Of a stretch of 64,000 nt of DNA, positions 1 through 34,739 are shown in pieces. The position numbers and the translations under genes were made by a program. Origin of the DNA: Dehalococcoidia bacterium (GTDB lineage: Bacteria > Chloroflexota > Dehalococcoidia > GIF9 > AB-539-J10); the NCBI GenBank assembly GCA_049671165.1, contig JBATUN010000023.1, forward strand, positions 11,722 through 75,721, read 5' to 3'. Each line of letters opens with the position of its first letter. Within the stretch, counting starts at the first letter, position 1. The notes beneath the pieces were generated by a model, which saw only the letters and a list, made by a program, of their open reading frames with translations, made no database searches and was not told where the DNA came from.

Positions 1-1131
1 TTCGAGAAGATTGTCAAGTTGGACGATAGAGACAATTATGCCTGGCATAGAAAGGGAATTGAGCTTAACTCTCTGAAGAAATACAAAGAGGCCCTGGATT
101 GTTTTGATAGGGCTATAGTAATCAAACGCAATGACGAATACGGATGGAATCACAGAGGCGTGGCACTGCGGGAGCTCGGAAGATACGATGAGGCTCTCCG
201 TAGCTGTAATAAAGCCATTAGAATCAATAACAAGTACCCTTTTGCCTGGTATACCAAAGGTTCTATCCTCCAACACCTGGGAGACCTTGCGGGAGCCAAA
301 GATTGTTTCCAGAATGCTGTTAGGTTTGCCCCTGATAATGACTCATATAGAAAGCGATTAGCCGGCATCAACGAGATTGCCGGTAGATCAGGAATAGAGA
401 ATGAAACCAGCGCCCAACTGCACCATGATGGGATTGCTCTTAGTAAATTGGGTAAACATGAAGAAGCTCTGGCCCAGTTTAAGAAAGCTATCAAGTTAGA
501 TCCCGAGGATAATGTCGCCTGGCACCGTAAAGGAATAGAACTAAACGCCCTGGGAAAATACAATGAGGCAATAGAGTGTTTTGAAAGGGCTATCAGGATT
601 AATTCCAGAGATAAATTCGCCTGGAACCATCGGGCGCTTTCTCTATGCAGGTTGGGAAATTATGGAGATGCCATAACTTCCTGTAATGAAGCCATCAAGA
701 TAGATGATACCTATCCGTTTGCCTGGTGTAATAGGGCGGTCATATCAGCTCATCTCGAGGACTTCGAGGATTTTCAGAAGTGTTTCCGCAGAGCCCGTCA
801 ACTCGACCCCAAAGGGTTGAATAACCGGTTTCTTGCTGAACACCTGCCAAAGATTGGGTATGAGGATTTGCTCAGCCGGAGTAAGGGCGATGTCAAGCGT
901 TCCAGCTATTACTGTTGCGAGCTCTGCCTGGTGCATCTACAGATAGAAGAAATGCCCCAGGCGTTGAAATATGCGTTGGACTTAGGCAAGTATGCCAACG
1001 AGAAGGTAAAAGCAGTGCTGAAGCCGCTTATCGAAGAACTTGAGTTCCGCATCGACGGGGGCATAGGTGTTACGGAGGACTTGATAGAACGGGCTGATGT
1101 AATACTGCACCAGGTCAAGATGGGATGGTAA
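1..1131 (+). CDS. TPR-repeat protein, 5' partial (reading frame is open to the window edge). Carries a conserved ~75-aa C-terminal domain that is also found at the C-terminus of the TPR-kinase at 13549
   Basis: Repeated 34-aa TPR units (W..KG..L..L.RY.EAL..F..AI.I.P). The C-terminus 'YYCCELCLVHLQ...ALKYALDL...EDLIERADVILHQVKMGW' is nearly identical in pattern to the C-terminus of ORF 13549..15915. Confidence 0.8.
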   Translation, partial: FEKIVKLDDRDNYAWHRKGIELNSLKKYKEALDCFDRAIVIKRNDEYGWNHRGVALRELGRYDEALRSCNKAIRINNKYPFAWYTKGSILQHLGDLAGAKDCFQNAVRFAPDNDSYRKRLAGINEIAGRSGIENETSAQLHHDGIALSKLGKHEEALAQFKKAIKLDPEDNVAWHRKGIELNALGKYNEAIECFERAIRINSRDKFAWNHRALSLCRLGNYGDAITSCNEAIKIDDTYPFAWCNRAVISAHLEDFEDFQKCFRRARQLDPKGLNNRFLAEHLPKIGYEDLLSRSKGDVKRSSYYCCELCLVHLQIEEMPQALKYALDLGKYANEKVKAVLKPLIEELEFRIDGGIGVTEDLIERADVILHQVKMGW

Positions 1132-1215
1132 TATTTCAGGAAACATATTAGAAAAAATCATAACAGGGAGACAGAAGGGGTATCACAATCAATAGGTACC
1201 CACCATTACGTGGAC

Positions 1216-1260
1216 AAACAGGAGATAATAGAAATGATAGATGAGGCGCTAAGGGAATAA
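1216..1260 (+). pseudogene. Decayed remnant of the conserved tail module (KQEIIEMIDEALRE*). It lies in the same frame as, and downstream of, the stop codon of the TPR gene
   Basis: The run aaacaggagataatagaaatgatagatgaggc is identical to the 3' end of genes at 7741-7812 and 10255-10329. No TM helix or start codon precedes it. Confidence 0.45.
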
Positions 1261-1261
1261 A

Positions 1262-1834
1262 ATGAAAAAGCAAGACAAGTGGCTGCTTTGGTTGACCCTA
1301 GTTACGCTCCCCTTTTTATTTAGCGGGGTTATCTTAAGCTTTGTAAACGCAAGCGATCGAATACCCACTGTCATAACTATCACACCTAGCTCATCTAGTG
1401 TCGAGTTCGGCAGCAGTATCACTTTGACTGCCACGCTAAGGAATTCTGAAGGCGATCCCCTGTCTGGGAAAACAATTGTGTGGCTTTTCACCACAACGGA
1501 GTATACCTTTGGCACTAATATCGGAAACCTAGAGCCAAGTCGAGGAGTCACGGACTCTTATGGACAAGCAACCACTACTTATACTCCTGCCATACAAGGT
1601 GAGCCATATGGAGTAACTATCCGAGCTAGCTTTGGTGATTTCATTGATTTTATTGCAATGGGAGATGATTTTCATGAGGGCTCATATGCCGTTTGCCATA
1701 TTAGCGTATCTAGAGCTCCAGGGACCGCTGGTGACATTCAGGATACTACAGGGGCACCATTATGGATTTGGGTAACGCTGACGATATTCCTCGTGGGCAG
1801 TGCTGGCATTGAGCGTCGTTTGGCAAGGAAATAA
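1262..1834 (+). CDS. Membrane-anchored protein with a bacterial Ig-like (Big-like) domain, an N-terminal signal/TM helix and a C-terminal TM helix with a short basic tail (ERRLARK)
   Basis: ATG directly follows the remnant stop codon. N-terminal hydrophobic helix. 'ITITPSSSSVEFGSSITLTATLRNSEGDPLSGKTIVW' resembles a Big-like fold. C-terminal 'LWIWVTLTIFLVGSAGI' is a TM helix. Confidence 0.6.
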   Translation: MKKQDKWLLWLTLVTLPFLFSGVILSFVNASDRIPTVITITPSSSSVEFGSSITLTATLRNSEGDPLSGKTIVWLFTTTEYTFGTNIGNLEPSRGVTDSYGQATTTYTPAIQGEPYGVTIRASFGDFIDFIAMGDDFHEGSYAVCHISVSRAPGTAGDIQDTTGAPLWIWVTLTIFLVGSAGIERRLARK

Positions 1835-1904
1835 ATAGGGCAGTGTAAAATTTGGTGACAATTCTACAATGGATTACTTGTAGCTAACGAATTAGAGGGG
1901 AATT

Positions 1905-2315
1905 ATGCCACTCGGTATTTTTGTTCTTGGGCTTGGATTCTTGATGGGAAGCGGGATATTTGGCGACACGATATCATTGGTCGCATTTATCCTTGGTTTC
2001 CTAGCAGTGTGTCTATTCTCCGCACTCAGACAGAGTCGTAAGTTGTCCCTTTTCTATGGAGTCAATTTCGGCATTGGTATGGTTATCGGCGTATTAGCCT
2101 TTATAGCTGAAGAAGGTTCTGCTGGCTCTGGGCTCGTCTTTGCTTGGATAGCACTGGGCACTATAGGTTCCATTGCTCTGGGAAATGGTGCTGTTTCACT
2201 AGGTTTAAAGAGGAGTTTGAAGAAGCAGCTTGCCAAAGAGCAATTCGAAGCAAAGAAAGCTGAGATAATTGCTATGATAGATGAGGCGTTGGAGGAGGAG
2301 AAGAGGACGCGATAA
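1905..2315 (+). CDS. Small polytopic membrane protein ending in the conserved cytoplasmic tail (KKAEIIAMIDEALEEEKRTR*)
   Basis: Three or four hydrophobic helices followed by a basic stretch and the tail motif. The 3' nucleotide sequence is shared with the other members of the family. Confidence 0.65.
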   Translation: MPLGIFVLGLGFLMGSGIFGDTISLVAFILGFLAVCLFSALRQSRKLSLFYGVNFGIGMVIGVLAFIAEEGSAGSGLVFAWIALGTIGSIALGNGAVSLGLKRSLKKQLAKEQFEAKKAEIIAMIDEALEEEKRTR

Positions 2316-2574
2316 ATAACGCCAAAGATACTTAGAATATGATGACAGATTTGAAGGAGTCATAGACTATGGGAGGATTTTGGATATATACTGCATCCCT
2401 ATAAGGTATCCTGATGCCCTGACCCCTGCTACCATTCCTTATGAGACTTATATCGAAAGGGATGCCTTTGATGCGGTAATTTTGCATGTACAATCGCGGC
2501 AATGGTCAAGGAAGGGCTAGAATAACCAATAAAGGGAAAACGTCTAGCTAGGGTACCATGAGCGAGGAAAGAAC

Positions 2575-2994
2575 ATGCGCAGAATTGGGGTGATATTGGG
2601 GATAGCTGTAGGCTTTGCTATAGGCTATTCAGCTAGCTTCTTGATATTTGCGGGGGGGCCGAAGGCTTGGGGGTTTTGGGGGCTATATCTTCCGATAGTG
2701 ATTGTAGCCACGGTTCTGACGGGCAGAAATACAAGGAGCCGGCTCGCCGTGGTGATCTCCTCGTGTGTCACACTGCTGTGCTTAGTGGTAGCCGGGGTAG
2801 GAGAACACGATTTGGGAACTTACATCTGGATATGCTTTGCAATACCTTTTGCCACGCTTGGAGCAACTAATGGATACTTTATGGGTCAGGCGAGACTCAC
2901 AATAAGGCAGCAGGAAATTAACCGCCTCGAAAAAGAGAAGGCAGAGATAATAGAAATGATAGACGAGGTGTTGGAGGAAGAAAAGAGGCGGTGA
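2575..2994 (+). CDS. Small polytopic membrane protein ending in the conserved cytoplasmic tail (EKEKAEIIEMIDEVLEEEKRR*)
   Basis: Hydrophobic helices followed by 'RLTIRQQEINRLEKEKAEIIEMIDEVLEEEKRR'. Confidence 0.65.
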   Translation: MRRIGVILGIAVGFAIGYSASFLIFAGGPKAWGFWGLYLPIVIVATVLTGRNTRSRLAVVISSCVTLLCLVVAGVGEHDLGTYIWICFAIPFATLGATNGYFMGQARLTIRQQEINRLEKEKAEIIEMIDEVLEEEKRR

Positions 2995-3134
2995 TATTCA
3001 ATGCCCAGTAATATTAAAACCAGATTTGAGCTTGCTAGAAATCGTGAAGATCATTCCATATTAGCTGGAGGGATTCAAGGGTCGAAGTTGTAAGTGTTGA
3101 GGTTGGAGACAGAACATTCGAGGGGGTCTTAAGA

Positions 3135-4862
3135 ATGAAGTGGACAGAAATGGCACTCAGGCTCCTTAGAATAGCACTCATGATTGCCATAATTGGAGTA
3201 GTCCTTTTTTGTGGTGACTATCTCTCCCGTAGCCAGGTCTTGGCAGAATCACCCGCACAGATGGAATGGTCTCAGACATTTGGTGGAGAAGATTCAGAGC
3301 ATGCCGACTCTGTGCAGCAGACCGACGACGGTGGCTATATAGTCGCTGGTACAATCGAATCATATGGCGCCAACCAAGGTGACGCTTGGCTGATAAAGAC
3401 AGATGCGGGCGGGAATGAACAGTGGTCCCGGACATTTGGCGAAAGCTATTATGTCGCAGCCACATTTGTGGAGCAAACCAGCGATGGTGGCTATATTATT
3501 GCCAGTGAGATCGAATCATATGAATCGGGATCATATAGCAGTGACGTCTGGTTGATAAAGACCAATGCGGAAGGAGATGAACAATGGTCCCAGACCATTG
3601 GTGGGACAGACGATGAGGGGGCCCACTCTGTACAGCAAACCAGCGATGGCGGTTATATTATCGCTGGTGACACTTACTCCTATGGTGCCGGCGAGAGTAA
3701 TAATCTCTTGCTGGTAAAGACCGATGCGGGCGGACATGAACAGTGGTCCCGGATCTGGGCTGGAAGCAAATCGGATGTAGCCTGGTGCGTGCAGCAGACC
3801 AGTGACGGCGGTTATATTGTCGCGGGTGAGACGATGTCTTACGGTGTCGGCGATGGTGATTTCTGGCTGATAAAGACGGATGCGGGAGGAAATGAACAGT
3901 GGTCCCGGACATTTGGTGGAAGCGATGATGACGGCGCAAGATCTGTGCAGCAAACCAGTGACGGCGGCTATGTTATCGCTGGTGAAACTTCCTCCTATGG
4001 TGCCGGCGGTGTTGACGCTTGGCTGATAAAGACGGATGCGGGAGGAAATGAACAGTGGTCCCGGACGTTTGGTGTAACAGACAATGAGTGGGCCTACTCT
4101 GTGCAGCAAACCAGCGATGGCGGCTATATTATCGCTGGTCAGACTTACTCATATAGTACGAAGGATACGGATATCTGGTTGATAAAGACCGATGCGGGAG
4201 GAGACGAACAATGGTCCCTGACCTTTGGTGGAGCGGACACTGAGTGTGCCCATTCTGTGCAGCAAACCACTGACGGCGGCTATATTATGGCTGGTAACAC
4301 TGCGTCATATGGTGCTGGCGATGGTGACTTCTGGCTCATAAAGATAGCGATTCCGCCTCCCCCCGACATACCGACCCTCATTTCACCGCCCGACAAGGAC
4401 AGGATAGGACTCATAGGCGGGATTACGCCAACATTTCAGTGGTCTGATGTATCCGACGATAGCGGAGTTCGGTACAACCTGCAGGTAGCGACCCACAAGG
4501 ATGTTACCTCCACCGGAGAATTCGTTGATCCCATGCTTTCGGTTGTGGGTCTGGTCGGAACAAGCTATACCCTGGAAGAGACAGAAGCACTGCCGTATGG
4601 TACCTATTACTGGATTGTACAGGCCGTAGACGAAGCAGAGAATGAAAGTGACTGGACCGCGCCCAGTTCGTTCCAAGTTGGGCTATTGCCCCTATGGGGA
4701 CTCGTTGCCATTATCGTAGTCCTGGCGATGCTGTTGATCCTCTTAACTCGTGCCCTAGTAATGAGAGCGAGATCAAGAGCAACACGACTGATAGAGAGGG
4801 AGAAAAAAGAGATAATAGAAATGATAGATGAGGCGTTGGAGGAAGATAAGAGGTCGCGATGA
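3135..4862 (+). CDS. Type-I-like membrane protein with an N-terminal signal anchor, about eight tandem ~47-aa beta-propeller-like repeats, an FN3-like domain, a TM helix and the conserved tail
   Basis: Repeat unit 'SVQQTSDGGYIIAG.T.SYGAG..DAWLIKTDAGGNEQWSRTFGG'. The 'PPPPDIPTLISP...YYWIVQAVDEAENESDWTAPSSFQV' region resembles FN3. C-terminal TM helix 'LWGLVAIIVVLAMLLILL' followed by 'EREKKEIIEMIDEALEEDKRSR*'. Confidence 0.8.
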   Translation: MKWTEMALRLLRIALMIAIIGVVLFCGDYLSRSQVLAESPAQMEWSQTFGGEDSEHADSVQQTDDGGYIVAGTIESYGANQGDAWLIKTDAGGNEQWSRTFGESYYVAATFVEQTSDGGYIIASEIESYESGSYSSDVWLIKTNAEGDEQWSQTIGGTDDEGAHSVQQTSDGGYIIAGDTYSYGAGESNNLLLVKTDAGGHEQWSRIWAGSKSDVAWCVQQTSDGGYIVAGETMSYGVGDGDFWLIKTDAGGNEQWSRTFGGSDDDGARSVQQTSDGGYVIAGETSSYGAGGVDAWLIKTDAGGNEQWSRTFGVTDNEWAYSVQQTSDGGYIIAGQTYSYSTKDTDIWLIKTDAGGDEQWSLTFGGADTECAHSVQQTTDGGYIMAGNTASYGAGDGDFWLIKIAIPPPPDIPTLISPPDKDRIGLIGGITPTFQWSDVSDDSGVRYNLQVATHKDVTSTGEFVDPMLSVVGLVGTSYTLEETEALPYGTYYWIVQAVDEAENESDWTAPSSFQVGLLPLWGLVAIIVVLAMLLILLTRALVMRARSRATRLIEREKKEIIEMIDEALEEDKRSR

Positions 4863-4938
4863 ACAATGCCGACCTCCCCAACTCCTGAGGATAGTCAACT
4901 AAGATCAGACAACCGCACATGGATAATCGGATCTAGAC

Positions 4939-7812
4939 ATGAAGAATAGACAGGTGCCCTTACTATCTCTGCTCTGTATCACACTCGCGTGCAGGCTGAT
5001 GCTTCCTGCTGTGTTAGCGGGAGCTTCAGCAGTCATGTCTCTGCCGGATGCCCGTATTGGTAGTCATGCAATTGAGGAAGCAGAACACGCCTCCATGATT
5101 GCGGCAGGTAAGCAGCACATTGTAGGACTTAGCGACAAAGGCACGGTCGTCGCCGTGGGATTGAACGCCCAAGGTCAGTGCAACGTGGATGGCTGGACGG
5201 ATATCACTCAGATTGCTGCAGGTGAGAGTCACACGGTGGGGTGTAAGTCTGATGGCACCGCGGTCGCCGTGGGAGGTAACTCGGATGGAGAGTGCAACGT
5301 GGATGGCTGGACGGATATCATTCAGGTCGCTGCGGGGCAGTATTGGCACACAGTCGGGCTTAAATCCGATGGTACCGTGGTTGCCGTGGGATGGAACGAC
5401 CATGGGGAGTGTGATGTTGGCGGCTGGAAGGGCATCACCAGAGTCGCCGCAGGTGCATATCATACGGTGGGGCTCAAGAATGATGGCAGGGTGGTCGCCG
5501 TAGGAGATAACTCATACGGGCGGTGTGATGTTGGCGGCTGGAAGGGCATCACCAGAGTCGCCGCAGGTGCATATCATACGGTGGGGCTCAAGAATGATGG
5601 CAAGGTGGTCGCCGTAGGAGATAACTCATACGGGCAGTGTGATGTTGGCAGCTGGACGAACATGGTTCAGGTCGCCGCAGGCGTCTGTCACACAGTGGGG
5701 CTTAGGGACGATGGCACCGTCGTCGCTGTGGGATGCAATACCCTCGGGCGATGCGATGTCTACGGCTGGACGGACATGATCCATGTCACGGCAGGCACGT
5801 CTACCACAGTAGGACTCCGGGCCAACGGAACTGTGATTGCTGCAGGACAGGTGTACGGTGGACAGTGCGACGTTAACAGCTTGACTGACATGACCCAGAT
5901 CGCTGCAGGTTACTATCATACCGTGGGAATAAAGACTGACGGCACTGTAGTCGCAGCAGGATACAGTGCCATAGGACGGTGCAATGTCGGCGGTTGGACG
6001 AACATCATCCAGATCGCCGCAGGCGATTTTCACACGGTAGGGGCCAAGTCCGACGGCACCGTGGTTGCCGTGGGGTACGGCGCCAGTGGGCGGTGCGATG
6101 TCGGAAACTGGACAGATATCGTGCAAGTCAGTGCGGGTGAGGCTCACACCGTGGGGCTTAGGGCCGATGGCACCGTCCTCGCTGTGGGATACAGTGGTGA
6201 TGGGCGGTGTGATGTGAGCGACTGGGCGGATATCACTCAGGTCGCGGCAGGCTGGTGTCATACAGTGGGCGTTAAATCCAACGGTACTGTGGTAGCTGTG
6301 GGAACAAACAGTCATGGACAGTGCGATGTCACCGGCTGGACCAATATCATGCAGATCGCTGCAGGCGCCTGGCATACAGTAGGGCTGAAAACAGATGGTA
6401 CCCTAGTCGCGGTGGGATGCAACGACCAAGGGCAGTGTGATATTTCCAGTTGGACGGATATCATCCAGATCTCCGCGGGCCGCGATCACACGGTGGGGGT
6501 TGAATTTGACGGTACTGTGGTCGCCGCGGGAGACAACGCCGGCGGGCAATGCAATATCGGCGACTGGACGAATATTGTCCAAGTCGCAGCGGGTCAATTA
6601 CACACGGTTGGGCTTAGGGCCGATGGCACCGTCTTTGCTGCAGGCCCAGAAATTGAGCTAGCCAAATGGGATCTAATAGAGCCTGTTGGGAATGATGATG
6701 TCAATGAAGTGAGCCCTACAACGTCCCTTTACCTGGTTTACCAGGCTGACCTTAGCGGTGTTGAGCCTAGTAACGAAACCGAGCTGATGCTTACGACAAA
6801 AGAAGTGATCGAACGGCGCGTTAATGCCTTCGGGATAACAGATGCAACTATTGCAGTACAGGAACAGCTAGGAGAATGGAGCATTGCTATACAGCTACCG
6901 GGCATTGTTGAGATTGACAGGGTCAAGGAGCTACTGGTGTGTTTCGCCTTGCTTGAGTTCAAGGAGCAAGATGAAGAAGGAAATTGGATTCCTGCCACAG
7001 GTATAGTGAGCGGCAAGCAACTGGTGCTTAGCAGTAGGTATTTTGAGGAAAACACCTCTATTAGTGTGGACCAATATGGGAAACCGCTACTAGTATTTGA
7101 GTGGGATGAGATGGGAGGGGAGCTTTCGAAACAAATAACAACCCGCCTTCTCGGCAAACCATTGGCGATCTTCCTTGGCGATGAGCCGCTCCGTGGTGAA
7201 GATGGCCATGTCATCGCCCCGGTAGTCCAGGCGGTCATAGAAGATGGGGCACAAATTGAAGGATTAAGCCTTGCCGATGCCACTGAATTACGAGACTTGC
7301 TGAATGCCGGGAAGATTCCTGTTCCATTAGGTAGGTGGGTGGAGGAAGGCCAATCCAGGTTGTTTGAGTCTGATGTGCCTCTATATGAAGGGCAGGTGAC
7401 CCCCGCGACTTTAGTAATCAATGTTGCCCCGAGTGATAGTGGCATGGTCACCTTATCACCCTCTCAGCCTGCCGAAGGATATGTCGCCGGGACAGAAGTC
7501 ACACTGACCGCTGTTGCTAGCGAGGGATATAAATTTAGCCACTGGAGTGGCGCCACCTCAGGGTCGCAAAGCCCCACTACAATAACCATAGACTCGGATA
7601 AGGAGGTAAGTGCCAGCTTCATAGTCGAGGGACAAGCTTTTCCTCTGAATGTGATATACATCATAGGGGCAGCCTTTGGTGTAGTGGTGCTCGTTCTGGC
7701 AGTGTCAAAGGTACGGAGAAGGGCGCGTAGTACAAGAGAGCAGCTTGAGAAAGAAAAACAGGAGATAATAGAAATGATAGATGAGGCATTGGAAGAGGAG
7801 AAGAAGCGGTGA
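4939..7812 (+). CDS. Surface protein with a signal peptide, more than 25 RCC1-like repeats, a central domain, an InlB B-repeat (Listeria-Bacteroides repeat), a TM helix and the conserved tail
   Basis: Repeats 'HTVGLKSDGTVVAVG.N..GQCDV.GWTDI.Q.AAG' (RCC1/BLIP-II-like). 'EGYKFSHWSG' is the B-repeat signature. TM helix 'VIYIIGAAFGVVVLVLAV' followed by 'EKEKQEIIEMIDEALEEEKKR*'. Confidence 0.85.
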   Translation: MKNRQVPLLSLLCITLACRLMLPAVLAGASAVMSLPDARIGSHAIEEAEHASMIAAGKQHIVGLSDKGTVVAVGLNAQGQCNVDGWTDITQIAAGESHTVGCKSDGTAVAVGGNSDGECNVDGWTDIIQVAAGQYWHTVGLKSDGTVVAVGWNDHGECDVGGWKGITRVAAGAYHTVGLKNDGRVVAVGDNSYGRCDVGGWKGITRVAAGAYHTVGLKNDGKVVAVGDNSYGQCDVGSWTNMVQVAAGVCHTVGLRDDGTVVAVGCNTLGRCDVYGWTDMIHVTAGTSTTVGLRANGTVIAAGQVYGGQCDVNSLTDMTQIAAGYYHTVGIKTDGTVVAAGYSAIGRCNVGGWTNIIQIAAGDFHTVGAKSDGTVVAVGYGASGRCDVGNWTDIVQVSAGEAHTVGLRADGTVLAVGYSGDGRCDVSDWADITQVAAGWCHTVGVKSNGTVVAVGTNSHGQCDVTGWTNIMQIAAGAWHTVGLKTDGTLVAVGCNDQGQCDISSWTDIIQISAGRDHTVGVEFDGTVVAAGDNAGGQCNIGDWTNIVQVAAGQLHTVGLRADGTVFAAGPEIELAKWDLIEPVGNDDVNEVSPTTSLYLVYQADLSGVEPSNETELMLTTKEVIERRVNAFGITDATIAVQEQLGEWSIAIQLPGIVEIDRVKELLVCFALLEFKEQDEEGNWIPATGIVSGKQLVLSSRYFEENTSISVDQYGKPLLVFEWDEMGGELSKQITTRLLGKPLAIFLGDEPLRGEDGHVIAPVVQAVIEDGAQIEGLSLADATELRDLLNAGKIPVPLGRWVEEGQSRLFESDVPLYEGQVTPATLVINVAPSDSGMVTLSPSQPAEGYVAGTEVTLTAVASEGYKFSHWSGATSGSQSPTTITIDSDKEVSASFIVEGQAFPLNVIYIIGAAFGVVVLVLAVSKVRRRARSTREQLEKEKQEIIEMIDEALEEEKKR

Positions 7813-7818
7813 TATTGA

Positions 7819-8268
7819 ATGGCGAGAAATACTACAAACAGGTCTGAATCGACTGGAAATCCAGGGGCTGATTTTGTGCTAGTTGGAAGGGTTCGACGGT
7901 TGGAAAGGATCGTATCACGCCACCTGAACGAAATACAGGCCGTCCTGGCTCTGATGCTGGTTATTTCAGCGCTCGTTCTTCCTCTACCACAGCCGGCAGT
8001 GGCCCAATCGCTTGATACATCAGCCTCGTGGCCGATGTTCCGCCAGAACTCGCGGCACACCGGCCTGAGCCCTTATGATACGGGTGACAATCCGGGTACC
8101 CAGAAGTGGACCTTCACCACGGGACACTATGTAGATTCTTCTCCGGCGATAGGCAGTGACGGCGCGATACATGTGCGTTCTAGATATGTGTTATCCCTAG
8201 AGTTATCGGCAGCTAACCGAGGCAACATTGGTGAGCGATCAGGGGTACGTTCAGGTGAGCAGAAATAA
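7819..8268 (+). pseudogene. Truncated N-terminal fragment of a PQQ-like beta-propeller repeat protein (signal peptide plus the first blade only)
   Basis: 'ALMLVISALVLPLPQPAVAQS' followed by 'WPMFRQNSRHTGLSPY...GTQKWTFTTGHYVDSSPAIGSDGAIHV' is a typical start of PQQ-repeat proteins. Similarity ends after one blade and the ORF terminates. Confidence 0.35.
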
Positions 8269-8310
8269 GACATCTGCATTCAATCATATTTCCTCCCTGT
8301 CAGAGGTGAG

Positions 8311-10329: not shown

Positions 10330-10419
10330 ACAATGCCGCAGACATCACTGCTATAATAGTCACAACAGATGAAGCCCTCGTAGAGATCAGACCTTGAACA
10401 AAAGAAGAGGTGATAGACA

Positions 10420-12612: not shown

Positions 12613-13336
12613 TCTTGATATAGCCTGCGTTACTGATACTGGGGGCAGGGGTGGAAATGAAGATAGATTGGTGGCCAAAAGCCTCGGGGCAGTACATTTG
12701 CTTGCAGTTGCTGATGGTTTGGGAGGGCATGCGGCCGGTGAAGTTGCCAGTAGTGTAGCTTTGACAGAGCTGGAAGGATATCTCAGGGCAAACGTAGTCG
12801 GGGAAGATATTCTGCACGCGGTGAAAGAAGCCGTGTCAAAAGCAAACAAAGAGATTCACCTACTATCTGAGGAGAACCCTGGCTATGCTGGCATGGGCAC
12901 AACTCTGGTCATGGGGCTGGTTCAGGCGGACAAGGTTCTGGTAGCTAATGTGGGGGACAGCCGACTATATCATATTTCGGAGAATGCGATGAACCAGATA
13001 ACCAGAGATCACTCCGTAGTCCAGGAACTCGTGGAGCAAGGATTGATTACAGCGCAAGACGCCTTATGTCATCCTGAGAAGAGTGTCCTGACAAGGGTGC
13101 TGGGCTTGGAGCCAGAGGTAGAAGCAGATACCTATGATATTGAGTTTTTGCCCGACGATCTTTTGCTTCTCTGTTCCGATGGGTTGACGGACTCCCTAAG
13201 GGATGAAGAGATTCGGGGAATCATCGTCTCTTCAGGTAACCTGGATGAGGCTTGCGCCAGGCTCATAAGCCTGGCCAGAGAAAAAGGTGGCACGGACAAT
13301 ATCAGCGTAGTTCTGGCAAGGAGGAAACGGGAGTAA
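12605..13336 (+). CDS. PP2C-family Ser/Thr protein phosphatase (Stp1-like)
   Basis: 'LLAVADGLGGHAAGEVAS', 'LVANVGDSRLY' and 'GGTDNISVVL'. Its start overlaps the kinase stop by 8 nt, which suggests translational coupling. Confidence 0.9.
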   Translation: MADLDIACVTDTGGRGGNEDRLVAKSLGAVHLLAVADGLGGHAAGEVASSVALTELEGYLRANVVGEDILHAVKEAVSKANKEIHLLSEENPGYAGMGTTLVMGLVQADKVLVANVGDSRLYHISENAMNQITRDHSVVQELVEQGLITAQDALCHPEKSVLTRVLGLEPEVEADTYDIEFLPDDLLLLCSDGLTDSLRDEEIRGIIVSSGNLDEACARLISLAREKGGTDNISVVLARRKRE

Positions 13337-13548
13337 GGTAACACAAGGTAGCTGTACATGGGGCCGCTGATGACGAAAGAATGAATAGTCTCGGTAAAAC
13401 CATCGGTCACTACCTGGAAGAGTTAGAACCTGAGTGACTGGATGAACTCAGAGCGATGAGAATTAAGCCTGCGCGTAGGGAGAAAACCATAACTGACGAA
13501 ATCGAGCATAAGACGCTGTAGGGCAGAGGATCGAAGAGGGAACTCGCT

Positions 13549-15915
13549 ATGGGAAAGAATGATGATCAGAAGGGGCTTTACGAAGAAACCGTGAGCGCCT
13601 GCACCAAGGCGACAAACAGAGACCCAAACGATGCTATCTCCTGGCTACTCAAGGCCTTTGCCCTTTTTGAACTCGCAAGATACGAAGAATCCGTAGATGC
13701 CTGGAATGGAGCGATAGAAATAAACCCAGAAGATGCCAACCTCTGGCATTACAAAGGCCTTGCCCTTTTCAGACTTGAGAGATATGAGGAGGCACTAGAT
13801 GTCTATAATAGAGCGATGGAGATAGACCCAAAAGATGCCGTCCTCTGGCGTAACAAAGGCCTTGCCCTTCTCAGACTTGAGAGATATGAGGAGGCACTAG
13901 ATGTCTATAATAGAGCGATAGAGATAGACCCGAAAAATGCTGATGCTTGGCATAGCAAGGGGCTTGCCCTTTGTAAGCTTGAGAGATATCAAGAGGGTGT
14001 GGCTGCATACGATAAGGGGATAGAGATGAACCCGAAACACGCTGATGCGTGGCACGACAGGGGAATTGGGCTTGGCAGACTTGAAAGATACGAAGAAGCC
14101 CTGGATGCCTTCAACAGAGCGCTAAAGGTGAACCCAGAACATCCTACTGCTTGGTATAACAAGGGCCTTGCCCTTTATAGACTCGATAGATATGAGGAGG
14201 CCCTAGACGCCTACAACCGGATGATAGAGATAGACCCAGAAACTGCTGGTGCCTGGAATGCCAAGGGCCTTGCCTTTGAGAGGCTAAAGAGGTATGAAGA
14301 GGCCCTGGATGCCTACAACAGGGTGATAGAGATAGATCCAGAAGATGCCCTTGCTTGGCATAACAAGGGATTCTCTCTTCGCAAGCTTGAGAGATATGAA
14401 GAGGCGGTAGATGCCTACAGTAGAGCGATAGAGATAGACCCAGGGGATGCCGATACTTGGCATGGTAGGGGACTTGCCCTTGGTCATCTTGAGAGATATG
14501 AAGAGGCTGTGGATGACTACAATACCGCGATAAAGGTAAATCCAAAAGATGTTCTTGCATGGTATCGCAAGGGGTGTGCTCTGGAACATCTGGATAGGTA
14601 TGAGGACGCAATAAGGTGCTATCGAAAGACCATTGAGCTCGACCCGCATAATGAAAATGCGAAGGCGGCTTTGGCGTCACTTGAGCAGGGTCGGCAGAAG
14701 AAGGGGCAGGCGAAGGTCTTCGAAGCCGCTGGGGCCCACGAAGCTGATGAAGAGTCGGAAGGGGCTTTGATCTCCCTGGAACACACTCAACGAGGGAAGG
14801 AGCAGGCTGAGATTGCTCCCCATCGAGTACGTCCAAGTGTTTTCAGTTCTTCCTTTCCGGGAGAGCTGAATCAATATTATTCTGACGTCTCATTCATTGG
14901 CAGCGGTGGTTTCGCCCGTGTATTCCGTGCTAAGAGAAGAACTGATGGCACGGAAGTGGCCGTCAAAATCCCCCTGTTTGGAGATCCCAAAACGGGTAAA
15001 AGTTTCATCAGAGAGATAACTTCCTGGCAGGTTCTGGAGCACAGAAACATTGTCAAGCTCTACGACTTCAATGTCCTGCCTCTTCCGTACCTGGAGATGG
15101 AGCTATGTGATGGCAGCTTAGAAGACCTGCCGAAACCTGTCGGCGTTGAGGAAGCCACTCGCCTCGTATTTGATATCGCCAATGGTCTAAGTCATGCGCA
15201 TGCTAAACACATAATCCACCGGGACCTCAAGCCCGGTAATATTCTGACGCGTACTGGTATTCCCAAGATTTCCGACTGGGGACTAAGCAAGACAATTGCT
15301 ATGGGTAGGAGCTCAGGAACTCCTAGTTTCTCACCGATGTATGCCGCACCTGAACAGTTATCGCCGGATAGATTTGGCAAACCTGACTACAGAACGGACA
15401 TCTACCAACTGGGCGCTATCTTCTACGAGCTTGTTACGGGTGAACTGCCACACAAAGGAGACAGCATCACCGAGATTATGGCGCAGATTCTCATGGGGCA
15501 ACCGGAATTTCCGTCACAGCTGGACTTAGAAAAAAAGGGCATAAAACACATCATCATACGCTGTCTGGAGAAGAAGATGAGTCAGCGCTACCAGAGTGTT
15601 GACCAGCTACAAAGAGAGCTGGCTGAGTATCTCAAAGTAGAGTATGAAGAATCGCTCGGCAGGAGCCACGGAGATATGAGGCGTTCCGGACATTATTGCG
15701 CGGAACTCTGCCTGGTTCACCTTCAGGTCGGTAATACCTCTGAAGCGTTGAAATACGCGCTGGACTTAACCAACTATGCTAGTGGGCAAGCTAAGGTTCT
15801 CTTGACGCCGCTAATTGGAGAACTGGAGTTCCGCCGGAAAGAAGAACAAGCAGTTCCTGAAGACTTGATAGAGCGGGCAGGTGTGGTCTTGCACCAGGTG
15901 AAGATGGGGTGGTAA
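13549..15915 (+). CDS. TPR-repeat (about ten repeats) Ser/Thr protein kinase with a DWG motif. Its C-terminal ~75 aa are homologous to the C-terminus of the TPR protein at 1..1131
   Basis: TPR units in 13600-14640. 'GSGGFARVF...VAVKI', 'HRDLKPGNIL', 'ISDWGLSK' and 'APEQ'. C-terminus 'HYCAELCLVHLQ...ALKYALDL...EDLIERAGVVLHQVKMGW'. Confidence 0.9.
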   Translation: MGKNDDQKGLYEETVSACTKATNRDPNDAISWLLKAFALFELARYEESVDAWNGAIEINPEDANLWHYKGLALFRLERYEEALDVYNRAMEIDPKDAVLWRNKGLALLRLERYEEALDVYNRAIEIDPKNADAWHSKGLALCKLERYQEGVAAYDKGIEMNPKHADAWHDRGIGLGRLERYEEALDAFNRALKVNPEHPTAWYNKGLALYRLDRYEEALDAYNRMIEIDPETAGAWNAKGLAFERLKRYEEALDAYNRVIEIDPEDALAWHNKGFSLRKLERYEEAVDAYSRAIEIDPGDADTWHGRGLALGHLERYEEAVDDYNTAIKVNPKDVLAWYRKGCALEHLDRYEDAIRCYRKTIELDPHNENAKAALASLEQGRQKKGQAKVFEAAGAHEADEESEGALISLEHTQRGKEQAEIAPHRVRPSVFSSSFPGELNQYYSDVSFIGSGGFARVFRAKRRTDGTEVAVKIPLFGDPKTGKSFIREITSWQVLEHRNIVKLYDFNVLPLPYLEMELCDGSLEDLPKPVGVEEATRLVFDIANGLSHAHAKHIIHRDLKPGNILTRTGIPKISDWGLSKTIAMGRSSGTPSFSPMYAAPEQLSPDRFGKPDYRTDIYQLGAIFYELVTGELPHKGDSITEIMAQILMGQPEFPSQLDLEKKGIKHIIIRCLEKKMSQRYQSVDQLQRELAEYLKVEYEESLGRSHGDMRRSGHYCAELCLVHLQVGNTSEALKYALDLTNYASGQAKVLLTPLIGELEFRRKEEQAVPEDLIERAGVVLHQVKMGW

Positions 15916-15988
15916 GGGCCGCACAAAGTAAAGACTGGATCTTGGGGATTTCTTATGGAAGCCCGAACACGGACATCGACCCGTTGTG

Positions 15989-16018
15989 TTGATTGCATAT
16001 TCAGAGGAGCGTTATAGT
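15989..16018 (+). promoter_or_regulatory. Putative sigma-70-like promoter (TTGATT-N18-TATAGT) upstream of the ESCRT-III-like gene
   Basis: Found by eye. It sits in the 139-nt gap before the ATG at 16055, which has an AGGAGG RBS. Confidence 0.25.
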
Positions 16019-16054
16019 GTATAGAACCACAATATAACAAAGGAGGCAAAAGAG

Positions 16055-16654
16055 ATGGCAGGGTTCATTGAAAGAAGGCGTCAGGCGAAGGAAATCGAGC
16101 GCGATGTGAAGTTCAAGCAGGGGCTCTCCCGGGTGCGGAACTATGTTCATAAGTCCAACGATGCACAGAAGAAGTACTGGCAACTGGGCAAACGAGCTCT
16201 GAAACTGGGTGATAGGCAGCAGTTTGAGAACGGGGCCAAAGCTTATCTTCGCACGGCGGAGATGATTAACCGCTGGGAAAGATTCCTGGTAGCCATGGAA
16301 ACAGTCTCGCTACAGCGTGACCAGGTAAGAGTAACTGGCGAGTTCGCCAAGTCTATGGGCGCGTTGAGCAAGTCCATGATGGCCGGGGCTAGTCCTCAGG
16401 ATATTACCAAGATGCAGATGGATCTGGAACGTGCCCTCGCCAAAGCACATACCCTCGACGAGACCCTGGCCGCTGTAATGGACGCTACCAGCGATACCAT
16501 TTTCACGTCGGAAGGGGTCTCCGAAGAGTCGCTGCAACAGGTAGAAGGCGCCATGAAGGGTGAGGCGGTGCACGAAGAGGGAGAGACTCTCGATGATCGG
16601 ATTTCTGCCGGACTGCGCCGTATCGAAGAAGAAATGAGAAAGGAATCAAAATGA
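16055..16654 (+). CDS. Snf7/ESCRT-III family protein (CHMP2/Vps2-like) with a basic N-terminus, an acidic C-terminus and a C-terminal MIM1-like amphipathic helix
   Basis: By-eye alignment with human CHMP2A. 'VSLQRDQVRVTGEFAKSMGALSKSMMAGASPQDITKMQMDLERALAKAHTLDETLAAVMDATSD' corresponds to 'VSLKIQTLKSNNSMAQAMKGVTKAMGTMNRQLKLPQIQKIMMEFERQAEIMDMKEEMMNDAIDDAMGD'. C-terminus 'DDRISAGLRRIEEEMRK' corresponds to the CHMP2A MIM 'DADLEERLKNLRRD'. AGGAGG RBS. Confidence 0.75.
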   Translation: MAGFIERRRQAKEIERDVKFKQGLSRVRNYVHKSNDAQKKYWQLGKRALKLGDRQQFENGAKAYLRTAEMINRWERFLVAMETVSLQRDQVRVTGEFAKSMGALSKSMMAGASPQDITKMQMDLERALAKAHTLDETLAAVMDATSDTIFTSEGVSEESLQQVEGAMKGEAVHEEGETLDDRISAGLRRIEEEMRKESK

Positions 16655-17766
16655 GGTTTGCGCTGGAGAAGAGTGCCGAGCATCTTGAAAAGGGGCTCAG
16701 ATTGGAGCGTGATGGTGACCTGAAGGGAGCCAGATATAGTCTCTTGAAAGCTGCCGAGTTCTTGTATAAAGCCGCACAGGAATCGGAGCCTGCCCTGAAG
16801 GCGAAGCGAATTGAGCGCGCGGATAGCATAGTGCGACGTGCGGAAGCCTTGACTAAGATGCTGGCCGGAAAGAATGCACCAGGGGCAGCGACTCAGGCTG
16901 AAAGCGTTGGCGGAGCATCGCAATGGATGGTATTTGAAAGGCCGAACCTGAGGCTTGACGATGTGGCCGGACTACAGGAGGTTAAGGAACAAATCAGGAT
17001 CCGCATGATATATCCTTTTACGCATCCCGACCTAGCCAGTCGCTTCGGGATAAAGAAAGGAGGAGGCATATTGCTTTACGGCCCACCCGGTACGGGCAAG
17101 ACGATGCTGGCCAGGGCGGTAGCCGGTGAAATTGACGCTGCATTCTTCGCAGTTAAGCCGTCAGAGATAATGAGCAAATGGGTTGGTGAGGCGGAGCAGA
17201 ATGTAGCTCGTCTCTTTTCTGAGGCAAGAAGGCATGAACGCGCTATCATCTTCATCGACGAAGTTGAATCGCTCATACCAAAGCGCAGTGGTAGTTATTC
17301 CACCGTAATGCAACGAGTGGTCCCGCAGATCCTCTCTGAGATGGAGGGTTTTAGCAGCGGCAAAGATAGCGGGAATGCACTGCTTTTCATGGGAGCGACC
17401 AACGAACCCTGGGCGCTTGATGAAGCGGTTCTCCGCCCGGGGCGTTTCGACGAGAAAGTGTATGTTCCTCTTCCCGACTTCGCTGCTCGGCTCGCCATTC
17501 TGAACCATCATCTGAAGGACAAACCTCTCTCTCCTGACGTATGTCTGGATGAGATAGCTAAGATGCTGGAAGGCTACAGCGGGGCAGACATACGCCGTAT
17601 CTGTGAAAAAGCCTGTGACATCCCTTTTGTCGAGTCCGTGAGGACAGGTGAGGAGAGGAACGTGGAGAAACGTGATGTGCTCTGTGCTGTTCATTCAGTG
17701 AAGCCATCGGTGTCGGGCCAGGCCATAGCGAAATTTGAGAAACTCGCCTTCGCCAGCGGAGCGTGA
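16651..17766 (+). CDS. Vps4/CdvC-like AAA+ ATPase with an N-terminal MIT domain (meiotic-clade-like)
   Basis: The N-terminal three-helix pattern 'A.HLEKGLRLERDGDLKGARYSLLKAAEFLYKAAQE...AKRIERADSIVRRAEALTKML' matches the Vps4 MIT pattern. 'LLYGPPGTGKTMLARAVA' (Walker A), 'IIFIDEVESL' (Walker B) and 'GATNEPWALDEAVLRPGRFDEKVYVPLPDFAAR' (SRH). The ATGA overlap with the upstream stop indicates translational coupling. Confidence 0.85.
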   Translation: MRFALEKSAEHLEKGLRLERDGDLKGARYSLLKAAEFLYKAAQESEPALKAKRIERADSIVRRAEALTKMLAGKNAPGAATQAESVGGASQWMVFERPNLRLDDVAGLQEVKEQIRIRMIYPFTHPDLASRFGIKKGGGILLYGPPGTGKTMLARAVAGEIDAAFFAVKPSEIMSKWVGEAEQNVARLFSEARRHERAIIFIDEVESLIPKRSGSYSTVMQRVVPQILSEMEGFSSGKDSGNALLFMGATNEPWALDEAVLRPGRFDEKVYVPLPDFAARLAILNHHLKDKPLSPDVCLDEIAKMLEGYSGADIRRICEKACDIPFVESVRTGEERNVEKRDVLCAVHSVKPSVSGQAIAKFEKLAFASGA

Positions 17767-17795
17767 TAGTGCACTCATGGACCAAGGCTAGAGTG

Positions 17796-18248
17796 ATGAA
17801 GCGGGGAGAGTATCACGAGAAACTGAAGCAGTGGGAAGCAGAAGGCTATGATGTCTCAGAATTCAAGCAGAAGTGGTTTCCCGAAGGAAATGGAAGAGGC
17901 AGAAGCCGCGCCTGGATGCCGAGGGTTGCAGGGATTCTGGACTTGGTTGGCGGCGTAGTCGTTCTGTATGAGTTGACGATACGTTTTGGCGGGATTTGGC
18001 GGACGCCGTTTTTCGGCGTTTTGGTCGGCATTTTGGGGTGGAGCGTGTTCATCATGCTCGGGGCTGTACCGATAGTAGGTGGGATTTTCGCCATTAAGAG
18101 AAGAAACTGGCGTCTTTCTTTGACTGCCGCAATCTGTGTTTTGGCCGCCGGATTCATGAATGTGGACATGCAATATGTATTAATACTTTGGATTTTGGGT
18201 GTCGCGGCAGCAACGGTCACAGTTCGGGGAAGAGACAGGTTCAAGTAG
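17796..18248 (+). CDS. Membrane protein, paralog A. It has a conserved cytoplasmic N-terminus followed by three or four TM helices
   Basis: 'MKRGEYHEKLKQWEAEGYDVSEFKQKWFPEG...RAWMPRVAGILDLVGG' is about 90% identical to the N-terminus of the next gene. The start was moved to the internal ATG that matches the paralog start. Confidence 0.6.
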   Translation: MKRGEYHEKLKQWEAEGYDVSEFKQKWFPEGNGRGRSRAWMPRVAGILDLVGGVVVLYELTIRFGGIWRTPFFGVLVGILGWSVFIMLGAVPIVGGIFAIKRRNWRLSLTAAICVLAAGFMNVDMQYVLILWILGVAAATVTVRGRDRFK

Positions 18249-18260
18249 GCCAGAGGTGAA

Positions 18261-18698
18261 ATGACGAAGCGGGGAGAGTATCACGAGAAGCTAGAGCAGT
18301 GGGAAGCAGAAGGCTATGATGTCTCAGAATTCAAGCAGAAGTGGTTTCCTGAAGGAGAAGGAACAGGCAAAGGCCGCGCCTGGATGCCAAGGGCTGCAGG
18401 GATTCTGGATTTGGTGGGTGGGGTTTACGGCCTGATTTGGTCCATATTGGTGCTTATTGGGAGCGGGATTTTCGTTGGTAGCTGGTATAGAATGACGAGC
18501 GGCCCGGTAATCGTGCTCAGCACAATAGCGATAGCAGGTGGGATTTGCGCTGTGAGGAGCAAAACCTGGCGTCTCTCTCTGACTGGTGCTATCTGTGTGC
18601 TGGCTGGCGGATTGCTCAGTGCCGGGGCTAGCCTAGGTTTGCTTCTGGGTATCCTAGCGGTAACATTCACCATTCTGGGAAAAAGCAGGTTCAAGTAG
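18261..18698 (+). CDS. Membrane protein, paralog B (tandem duplicate of 17796..18248)
   Basis: GAGGTGA RBS. 'MTKRGEYHEKLEQWEAEGYDVSEFKQKWFPEG' followed by hydrophobic helices. Confidence 0.65.
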   Translation: MTKRGEYHEKLEQWEAEGYDVSEFKQKWFPEGEGTGKGRAWMPRAAGILDLVGGVYGLIWSILVLIGSGIFVGSWYRMTSGPVIVLSTIAIAGGICAVRSKTWRLSLTGAICVLAGGLLSAGASLGLLLGILAVTFTILGKSRFK

Positions 18699-24166: not shown

Positions 24167-24176
24167 AGCTCCTCCT

Positions 24177-24821: not shown

Positions 24822-24966
24822 GCCTAACCTCCATAAACAAAAAAGTCAAAGGTTAAGAATCAAAATGACAAATCAAAAATAGAACCTCTAAATACCTTTC
24901 TTTGCGTTCTTACTTTTTTATTTACTGTTGCTCTGTCATTTTGCATTTTTATTTTTGCTTCTTACA

Positions 24967-28029: not shown

Positions 28030-28030
28030 A

Positions 28031-28519: not shown

Positions 28520-28599
28520 GAAGCTCCACCCTTTCTATTCTCATATTAAGTAGCCTGGGAGCTTGTCCTCCATCCTTTTGCCGACGACAAGCCTTGGTA

Positions 28600-31275: not shown

Positions 31276-31309
31276 AACCCCGCAGGTGGGCGTAAGGCAT
31301 CCCGCAGGG

Positions 31310-34559: not shown

Positions 34560-34650
<91 letters not shown>

Positions 34651-34651
34651 G

Positions 34652-34739
34652 CGGAGAGGGTGGGATTCGAACCCACGCTCCGATATAATCGGAGACCGCT
34701 TTTCGAGAGCGGCACCATAAACCACTCGGTCACCTCTCC
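34652..34739 (-). tRNA. tRNA-Ser (anticodon CGA), type II, directly abutting the previous tRNA
   Basis: Acceptor GGAGAGG/CCTCTCC, anticodon stem CCGCT/AGCGG with loop CTCGAAA, long variable arm and T-arm GTGGG-TTCGAAT-CCCAC. Confidence 0.85.

Follow-up and report, generated by a model that had tools for sequence, protein, structure and literature searches.

Do variable surface proteins, protein kinases and an ESCRT-like machinery that are encoded side by side in a bacterium belong to one system? This question is raised by a gene cluster at positions 19-18698 of a 64-kb stretch of DNA (hereafter the window) from a member of the Dehalococcoidia (Chloroflexota). An earlier sequence-only reading had assigned the tailed membrane proteins of this cluster, its Ser/Thr kinases, a PP2C phosphatase, a Snf7 protein and a Vps4-like ATPase to a single system, and the conservation of this neighbourhood in related genomes supports the assignment. 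We propose that the cluster would represent one arm of a conserved Chloroflexota membrane-remodelling system, built on a Snf7-type ESCRT-III protein and an AAA+ ATPase with an MIT domain, to which short peptide tags would direct a changing set of membrane proteins.

The bacterial host, absent from the sequence-only reading, is the chief reason for the interest of this cluster. The window encodes an RpoD-type sigma factor, an ABC-F protein and a two-component histidine kinase, which identify it as bacterial, as well as a formate-dehydrogenase/NuoF/MetF cluster; an archaeal origin was rejected on the basis of these genes. According to a 2025 review, a Vps4-like ATPase appears to be absent from bacteria (PMC7619361). 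A survey of PSP systems listed isolated bacterial Vps4-like ATPases (e.g. ACB74714.1), which were explained by transfer from archaea, snf7 being replaced by a TPR + 6TM (six-transmembrane) gene (PMC11237479). The present cluster resembles these cases in having a Vps4-like AAA+ protein in a bacterial genome, but differs from them in that the Snf7 gene is kept, translationally coupled to the ATPase gene and accompanied by kinases, PP2C and tagged membrane proteins. In the literature searched, which does not cover all journals, no paper was found that links Dehalococcoidia, Chloroflexi or Planctomycetes to an ESCRT-III/Vps4 pair.

The Snf7/ATPase gene pair and its neighbourhood

Twenty loci from genomes and metagenomes were read and scored with the window proteins and with hidden Markov models (HMMs) of two short peptide tags, T1 and T2. 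Twelve independent Chloroflexota loci were distinguished, namely the window, L002 and L004-L013, L020 standing in as a further locus on a long contig. The order Snf7 followed by the MIT-AAA ATPase is kept in all twelve. The comparison of neighbourhoods, which the sequence-only reading had named as a check on its proposal, thus came out positive: a kinase gene is found in 10 of the 12 loci and PP2C in 5, and membrane proteins tagged with T1 or T2 are encoded within 10 kb of the pair in 8. PP2C is listed for the window, L002, L004, L006, L010 and L020, and the tags for the window, L002, L004, L007, L008, L009, L010 and L020. In addition, a 4-bp overlap between the Snf7 and ATPase genes is shared by the window, L002 and L004.

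It could be argued that the surface-protein genes, an operon of kinase and phosphatase and another of Snf7 and AAA have no functional link and only happen to be neighbours in the same orientation, since gaps of 130-260 nt separate some of the genes and a promoter-like site precedes the Snf7 gene. However, the combination recurs in loci with 60-80% identical genes and a rearranged order, the tags occur nowhere else in the window, and a shared helical C-terminal domain (CTD) ties together TPR proteins, kinases and an SPFH protein, all encoded beside Snf7. Because of the conserved neighbourhood, chance adjacency is effectively excluded.

The 199-amino-acid Snf7 protein is matched by Pfam Snf7 over amino acids 19-164 (E = 1e-6) with 29.0 bits, a small margin over the cut-off of 27.3, and is named 'MAG: Snf7 family protein [Dehalococcoidia bacterium]' in its source. 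Of 12 family members, nine are matched by Pfam Snf7 but not one by PspA_IM30, while the family profile retrieved CHMP1B alone from the PDB sequences (E = 0.28). The predicted structure has the long alpha1/alpha2 hairpin followed by alpha3-alpha5 that is expected of the fold. The C-terminal helix, D180-x-R-I183-x-x-G186-L-x-x-I-E191-E-x-M194, varies little or not at all across the family; it has a MIM1-like hydrophobic spacing, yet lies outside the MIM1 consensus. From its sequence we assign the protein to the Snf7-type ESCRT-III proteins. The family comprises 91 clusters at 90% identity in a word-indexed search, its named members all being Dehalococcoidia or Chloroflexota, and 276 representatives at 50% identity in a full HMMER scan (E <= 1e-3); among the distant members the named ones are Planctomycetota, and one locus is from Eisenbacteria.

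The partner ATPase begins with an MIT-like three-helix bundle (amino acids 2-74), which a disordered linker connects to a single classical AAA cassette; this cassette contains Walker A/B and arginine fingers and is followed by a lid and a C-terminal helix. The MIT domain that had been suggested for it is corroborated in two ways: a profile of amino acids 1-91 matches the MIT domain 2mpk (Saprolegnia chitin synthase 1) over amino acids 8-69 with E = 4e-4, and the AF2 model (overall pLDDT 83) predicts the bundle with a pLDDT of about 90 and the C-terminal helix at amino acids 356-370. The NCBIfam CdvC model also aligns end to end (amino acids 14-364, 233.8 bits), the N-terminal domain included. 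Pfam MIT does not match the window ATPase and Pfam Vps4_C reaches only 17.5 bits, under its cut-off of 21.3; among the precomputed domains of the orthologues, Vps4_C (PF09336) is found in many and MIT in one. With an N-terminal MIT domain and an ESCRT-III neighbour gene, the ATPase shows both features that were used by Makarova et al. 2024 (PMC11188069) to recognise archaeal Vps4 operationally.

The ancestral function of the ESCRT-III superfamily is considered to be membrane repair (PMC7619361), and a PspA/Vipp1-like role in envelope stress or repair has to be weighed here, in which the tagged proteins would be sensors or anchors whose tails recruit Snf7 and the ATPase to a lesion, with the kinases and PP2C relaying the signal. 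Such a role would suit the small polytopic tagged proteins, which resemble anchors more than cargo, and the kinases, which are the most constant neighbours even in tag-less loci. It would also suit locus L008, where an SPFH protein (3325-4308; Band_7_1, E = 3e-41) is fused to the CTD and encoded immediately upstream of Snf7; SPFH proteins localise PspA in Bacillus (cited in PMC11188069). The bacterial host, a helical ESCRT-III-superfamily protein at the cytoplasmic membrane and an occasional SPFH partner are indeed common to the cluster and to PspA/Vipp1 systems. However, the match is to Snf7 and not to PspA_IM30, the partner is an MIT-AAA ATPase, typical of the remodelling/scission branch, instead of PspF/PspBC, and many diverse tagged ectodomains per locus suit a set of clients better than a sensor. 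As Pfam identified none of PspB, PspC and PspF among the proteins of the cluster, it falls outside the PspA/Vipp1 systems, and we consider the repair function unlikely, although it deserves to be taken seriously.

Most of the related loci contain a second AAA ATPase (385-412 amino acids) after a coiled-coil protein of ~200 amino acids, just upstream of Snf7 (L002 219-2049; L009 7981-9952; L010 753-2677; L011 3469-5245; L020 7388-9359). Neither gene is present in the window, and both may sit on the part of the 81-kb contig outside it. The coiled-coil protein was considered as a second ESCRT-III protein ('Snf7-2') and dropped, since hhalign against the Snf7 family gave a probability of 0.1% and there was no PDB or Pfam match.

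The genes and remnants of the cluster are as follows.

19-1131, plus strand: soluble TPR protein with ~6 TPR repeats and the CTD (..YYCCELCLVHLQ...HQVKMGW, stop) at its end; Pfam TPR_1 E = 9e-56, no TM segment
1219-1260, plus strand: orphan T1 tail remnant (QEIIEMIDEALRE, stop); DNA repeat family D6 and translation
1262-1834, plus strand: 190-amino-acid surface protein with signal/anchor, Ig-like Big_1 domain (32 bits, below cut-off) and C-terminal TM segment, untagged; TM segments at amino acids 8-26 and 165-183
1905-2315, plus strand: small polytopic membrane protein, ~4 TM segments, T1 tag (AEIIAMIDEALEEEKRTR, stop); T1 HMM E = 5e-12
2575-2994, plus strand: small polytopic membrane protein, 3-4 TM segments, C-terminal T1 tag; T1 HMM E = 2e-11
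3135-4862, plus strand: 575-amino-acid type-I surface protein with signal peptide, ~7 repeats of ~52 amino acids (..SVQQTSDGGY..), Ig-like domain, TM segment and T1 (T1 HMM); repeat family D4
4939-7812, plus strand: 957-amino-acid type-I surface protein with 13 RCC1 repeats (beta-propeller), SecDF-P1-like domain, InlB B-repeat, TM segment (amino acids 905-923) and T1; Pfam RCC1_2 E = 1e-102, SecD_1st, Flg_new_2
7819-8268, plus strand: 149-amino-acid untagged open reading frame (ORF) with one TM/signal segment and no Pfam match; probable gene remnant, similar only to the N-terminus of a PQQ/beta-propeller surface protein
8311-10329, plus strand: 672-amino-acid type-I surface protein with repeats, two InlB B-repeat domains (Flg_new_2 E = 7e-27), TM segment and T1; repeat family D7
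10420-12612, plus strand: Ser/Thr kinase STK1; Pfam Pkinase E = 2e-46
12605-13336, plus strand: PP2C-family protein phosphatase; Pfam PP2C E = 6e-16
13549-15915, plus strand: TPR-kinase STK2; Pfam TPR_1 E = 2e-95, Pkinase E = 2e-41
16055-16654, plus strand: Snf7-type ESCRT-III protein, 199 amino acids; Pfam Snf7
16651-17766, plus strand: Vps4-like AAA+ ATPase, 371 amino acids; Pfam AAA E = 4e-40
17763-18248, plus strand: membrane protein A, cytoplasmic N-terminal T2 tag (EKLKQWEAEGYDVSEFKQKWF) followed by 4 TM segments; T2 HMM E = 1e-17
18261-18698, plus strand: membrane protein B, paralogue of A, with T2 tag and 4 TM segments; repeat family D8, its N-terminal 163 nt 90% identical to A

All supported ORFs of the cluster lie on the plus strand, and both this and the gene order agree with the sequence-only reading. 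The eight longest minus-strand ORFs within 19-18698 have no Pfam match and are read as antisense shadows; the next supported gene beyond the cluster (19558-20541) is on the minus strand. Three gene overlaps had been claimed, two of which stand (STK1/PP2C, 8 bp; Snf7/AAA, 4 bp), while the third, between the ATPase and membrane protein A, exists only if GTG 17763 is taken as the start of A. Since membrane protein B begins with MTKRGEYHEK, ATG 17796 is the more likely start, which would leave a gap of 29 nt after the ATPase gene.

Terminal tags and their carriers

Five membrane proteins of the cluster, the two small polytopic ones and the surface proteins of 575, 957 and 672 amino acids, finish with a TM segment, a basic stretch and the sequence ...EKEKxEIIEMIDEALEEEKRR directly before the stop codon (EIIEMIDEALEEEKRR; T1). 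This tag, predicted to be an acidic and amphipathic helix, makes up the very end of the chain. A six-frame scan and the tail HMM showed exactly five intact copies in the whole window and none in the 45 kb beyond the cluster. A search for DNA repeats revealed a sixth copy, the orphan at 1219-1260, which lies in frame 87 nt past the stop codon of the TPR gene, has no plausible start and looks like what is left of a tagged gene that was lost or rearranged. Together, these copies probably explain the six tail-module genes or remnants that had been counted before; the Big_1 protein and the 149-amino-acid fragment are untailed. A phage-tail sense of 'tail module' was rejected, as the genes encode surface and membrane proteins and the module is a cytoplasmic C-terminal peptide.

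The DNA encoding T1 constitutes a repeat family of 64-86% identity (2247-2324, 2929-3006, 4794-4871, 7747-7824 and 10261-10338; also 2926-3082 versus 7744-7900), whose similarity does not end at the stop codon but extends some tens of bases beyond it (..TGATATTnAATGCC..). The final 293 nt of the genes at 8311-10329 and 4939-7812 are 81% identical. This repetition of tag-coding DNA within the cluster suggests that T1 spreads as a cassette along with its downstream spacer, and that surface proteins newly enter the system when they gain this cassette. Between loci the same T1 peptide is encoded by different synonymous codons, which points to selection on the peptide itself. Selection at the nucleotide level, considered because of the ATA codons, was dropped, since ATA is the commonest Ile codon in the cluster anyway and synonymous sites vary between loci.

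Beyond the loci that were read, a T1 profile search of a set of 5.8 billion proteins returned only five short proteins, missed known positives and gives no census. Scanning metagenome DNA for the T1 pattern gave three matches, one of them real: in L019 (2-373), T1 forms the C-terminus of a soluble TPR protein encoded directly upstream of an STK1 orthologue and PP2C. T1 is thus not limited to membrane proteins.

Membrane proteins A and B start with (M)KRGEYHEKLKQWEAEGYDVSEFKQKWF before their first TM segment, and this stretch represents a second tag, T2 (QWEAEGYDVSEFKQKWF), which the sequence-only reading had missed. Its motif, W-E-x-E-G-Y-D-V-S-E-F-K-x-K-W (peptide MKRGEYHEKLKQWEAEGYDVSEFKQKWFPEG), is found at either the N- or the C-terminus; the T2 HMM gave no match in the 45 kb that lie beyond the cluster. 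T2 is located at the extreme C-terminus of five L004 proteins and of one WD40/PQQ propeller protein in L008, and at the N-terminus of an L007 protein with seven CarboxypepD_reg domains. In addition, a 70-amino-acid membrane protein in L002 (7888-8100) ends in a T1/T2 hybrid, EEAEIIDMINEAL-GYDVSEFKDKWLKRS, before the stop codon. In every case, the tags are placed on the predicted cytoplasmic side. The ectodomains of tagged proteins in the window and in the related loci are unrelated to one another and include RCC1, WD40/PQQ, CarboxypepD_reg, LRR, cadherin-like and Big_1 domains. The unrelated extracellular domains, the use of either terminus by T2, the hybrid and the soluble TPR carrier all argue that T1 and T2 are portable tags.

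Surface proteins outside the cluster are untagged, since neither T1 nor T2 is present on the three lipoprotein-type ones, a GLUG-repeat protein (19558-20541, minus strand), a protein with six InlB-B-like repeats (21069-23051) and an LRR internalin-like protein (40736-42337, minus strand).

The variable, cassette-like client genes could also be expected of a conflict or anti-phage system, in which a kinase/phosphatase/AAA/TPR module guards the envelope and the surface proteins act as receptors or decoys. The kinase, AAA and TPR domains do match PADLOC models (mad6, PD-T4-6, IetA, TPR), and an IS110 element and a retron-effector-like ATPase are encoded elsewhere in the window. These PADLOC matches, however, are confined to generic domains; the PADLOC models matched neither Snf7 nor the membrane paralogues nor any tagged protein. 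In addition, no nuclease or other effector is conserved, and the core order is kept across loci at 60-80% identity, as in a housekeeping accessory system. A defence function is therefore highly improbable.

Kinases, phosphatase and candidate tag readers

STK1 consists of a helical N-terminal region of ~370 amino acids, a kinase domain (amino acids 386-631; motifs GGGGFGDV, VAIK, HTDLKPRN, DWG and APE) and a divergent CTD, whereas STK2 has ~10 TPR repeats, a kinase domain (amino acids 444-687; VAVK, HRDLKPGN, DWG and APE) and the CTD. Neither contains a TM segment, so that both are soluble, and the catalytic residues of Hanks-type kinases are kept. That they are atypical, as had been stated, is evident from the DWG that replaces DFG in both of them and in the L004 kinase, and from the HTD (non-RD) motif of STK1 where STK2 has HRD. 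PP2C is an ordinary member of its family. The kinase/PP2C overlap is kept in related loci, and STK1 orthologues adjoin PP2C in L002, L004, L006, L010, L019 and L020.

The CTD, which the sequence-only reading had also missed, is a helical domain of ~85 amino acids (..YYCAELCLVHLQ...ALKYALDL..YA...LI.ELEFR...E.LIERA.V.LHQVKMGW, stop) that closes the TPR protein (19-1131) and STK2 alike; the divergent version of STK1 aligns along its whole length. It is also found at the end of the L002 TPR protein, the L004 and L011 kinases and the L008 SPFH protein. As it joins otherwise different proteins to the system, the CTD may, like MIT and TPR, be a docking domain, and is hence a third candidate reader of the tags. 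T1, T2 and the CTD all appear to be undescribed so far.

Proposed function and related systems

In the proposed tag-recruitment model, the Snf7 protein, as a member of its family, would polymerise on the cytoplasmic face of the membrane. By analogy with Vps4/CdvC, its C-terminal helix would recruit the ATPase via the MIT domain, which would then remodel or disassemble the polymer at the expense of ATP. A changing set of membrane proteins, comprising beta-propeller, Ig-like and InlB-repeat surface proteins as well as small polytopic ones, each bears T1 or T2, and these tags would serve as recruitment or sorting signals that bring their carriers to the Snf7 patch. They might be read by the MIT domain, the CTD or the TPR arrays. 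The timing of assembly would be set by the two soluble Hanks kinases and PP2C, whose conservation as a kinase and phosphatase pair is observed. The likeliest outcome would be outward budding, or else a membrane domain or vesicle into which tagged proteins are sorted. Topologically, ESCRT-III/Vps4 performs the same reaction elsewhere, the membrane budding away from the cytoplasm, and in a monoderm this would release or segregate membrane with the tagged proteins. Cultivated Dehalococcoides and Dehalogenimonas have been reported to be without peptidoglycan (PMC10284905); an absence of peptidoglycan, reported for these genera and not for the envelope of the present lineage, would make budding physically easy. 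Taken as a whole, the tag-recruitment model is the reading towards which we lean, if by a little, with much less confidence in any particular reader or outcome.

Several observations weigh against this model. The conservation of the tags within the window is partly due to recent DNA duplication. The T1 core is without Ser, Thr or Tyr and hence has no phosphorylatable residue, T1 departs from the MIM1 consensus, and its profile gave no meaningful match among the PDB sequences, in which the CTD profile found no match either. Four of the related loci are without T1 or T2, and the tag HMMs detected neither in the more distant loci L022, L024-L026, L001 and L014-L016. Since these distant loci retain two ATPases, a Snf7-like protein and many kinases, the tags are an elaboration of one sub-lineage, outside the core of the system; the association with kinases is older than the tags. 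The Snf7 model has a pLDDT of 70.6, i.e. moderate confidence, and its best Foldseek match has E = 0.07. Promoter and terminator scans of the cluster remained near background and gave no operon map.

The AAA cassette adds to these points. NCBIfam scored the ATPase with 241.2 bits for CDC48, 233.8 for CdvC (cut-off 650) and 220.9 for PAN, and the top phmmer and Foldseek matches are p97/Cdc48 D2 with ~38% identity, those of Foldseek being all p97; these searches with the whole ATPase are dominated by p97 D2 and are uninformative on the MIT domain. Judged by the scores and similarity searches, the cassette does not group with Vps4/CdvC and appears closest to Cdc48/p97 D2. Of the earlier designation as Vps4-like, the MIT domain and the ESCRT-III neighbour remain, and the ATPase could be an independent fusion of MIT with a Cdc48-like cassette. 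Its pore-loop-1, SKWVGE, presumably resembles the SKW[ML]GE motif of Vps4.

The similarity to the unfoldase domain D2 leads to a further explanation, in which the tags would be degron-like handles by which the Cdc48-D2-like MIT-AAA ATPase pulls proteins from the bilayer for degradation or recycling, while Snf7 only seals or stabilises the membrane. AAA+ unfoldases usually engage their substrates at chain termini, where the tags are located, and Vps4 itself threads ESCRT-III tails; turnover was also among the options named by the sequence-only reading. However, the conserved genes of the cluster include none for a protease, T1 is also found on a soluble TPR protein, and the 4-bp coupling to Snf7 together with the MIM-like C-terminus of Snf7 points to the latter as the primary substrate of the ATPase. 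We regard extraction as quite unlikely.

Of the systems described so far, the euryarchaeal ESCRT loci of the 'Main' and Halo_FHA types come closest; they combine Vps4, ESCRT-III, a Ser/Thr kinase and a phosphatase (+ arCOG09748, arCOG08177), their kinases bear a small C-terminal helical domain, and some of their relatives carry SPFH and zinc-ribbon proteins (PMC11188069). The present loci resemble them in the ESCRT-III gene adjoining the MIT-AAA gene, the dedicated kinase and phosphatase, the small helical domain at the kinase C-terminus, the SPFH or zinc-ribbon proteins of some related loci (L001, L008, L024) and the proposed role in protein sorting instead of cell division. Unlike the archaeal kinases, which are membrane proteins with Ig repeats, those of the cluster are soluble TPR/coiled-coil proteins, and T1/T2 on membrane proteins are not described for these archaeal loci. 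Nothing comparable to arCOG09748 (a C-terminal winged helix) or arCOG08177 (Cas2-like + TBP-like) was seen in the window, no comparison with the arCOG library having been made. Conserved genes for proteins of ~170 and ~635 amino acids, without Pfam match, are located upstream of the core in L011 (1035-3454), L020 (4877-7301, the two genes at 4877-5386 and 5394-7298) and L006 (1-1419), and might correspond by size and position to arCOG08177 and arCOG09748.

With eukaryotic and crenarchaeal Vps4/CdvC, the ATPase shares the arrangement of MIT, flexible linker, single AAA cassette and C-terminal helix, and its ESCRT-III partner likewise ends in a conserved amphipathic helix. It differs in having no beta-domain and in its cassette, which is slightly nearer to Cdc48/p97 D2 than to CdvC and far below the CdvC cut-off; in contrast to the MIT-MIM pairs known there, the Snf7 C-terminal helix and T1 are only loosely MIM1-like. 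Parts of ESCRT-I, ESCRT-II, CdvA and ubiquitin are lacking from the cluster. A cell division of the Cdv type, with Snf7 and the ATPase performing cytokinesis in a lineage with a reduced wall and the tagged proteins as CdvA-like tethers, might be envisaged, since ESCRT-III/Vps4 divides Thermoproteota (PMC11188069) and peptidoglycan is reportedly missing from Dehalococcoides and Dehalogenimonas, as mentioned above. No CdvA-like gene was recognised, however, the system is patchy in Chloroflexota, and its set of clients is variable and duplicated, neither of which is usual in an essential divisome. In cells with both FtsZ and ESCRT-III, moreover, division is attributed to FtsZ (PMC7619361). A role in division is thus very unlikely.

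The tags themselves recall the LPXTG/sortase, PEP-CTERM/exosortase and PGF-CTERM/archaeosortase systems, in which a short terminal module of TM segment, basic stretch and motif is likewise borne by unrelated surface proteins, near the presumed machinery. Here, by contrast, the conserved part follows the TM segment and is thus cytoplasmic, and it is an acidic helix; a sortase-like enzyme is absent, T2 may also be N-terminal and T1 occurs on a soluble protein as well.

It is possible, though on balance doubtful, that Dehalococcoidia and other Chloroflexota, with a tag-less core in Planctomycetota and Eisenbacteria, own a genuine ESCRT-type sorting machine related to the kinase-associated ESCRT of euryarchaea, with T1 and T2 as transferable signals into Snf7/Vps4 buds or vesicles under the control of kinases and phosphatase. 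If true, this would mean signal-directed, ESCRT-dependent trafficking of membrane proteins outside archaea and eukaryotes. A conserved bacterial pair of Snf7 and MIT-AAA, associated with kinase and phosphatase as in the euryarchaeal ESCRT loci, would alter the known distribution of ESCRT-III/Vps4 and would inform the question of whether the kinase-linked ESCRT module is old or moves horizontally. The cluster would also offer a compact system for studying how ESCRT-III clients are chosen: with two short tags on many membrane proteins, recognition can be tested with peptides and three small candidate reader domains, and T1 and T2 could serve as portable targeting signals.

Beyond the cluster, the window contains an IS110-family transposase gene (57231-58505) and a gene for an ATPase weakly similar to the retron/Septu effector ATPases PtuA and Eco8 (42809-44257). 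A C1/formate redox cluster on the minus strand (23276-31386) encodes a MetF-like methylenetetrahydrofolate reductase, a 1020-amino-acid NuoF/GltD-type fusion and a formate dehydrogenase alpha subunit. Finally, two tRNA-Ser genes with the anticodons GGA and CGA are placed end to end with zero spacer at 34560-34739, also on the minus strand.

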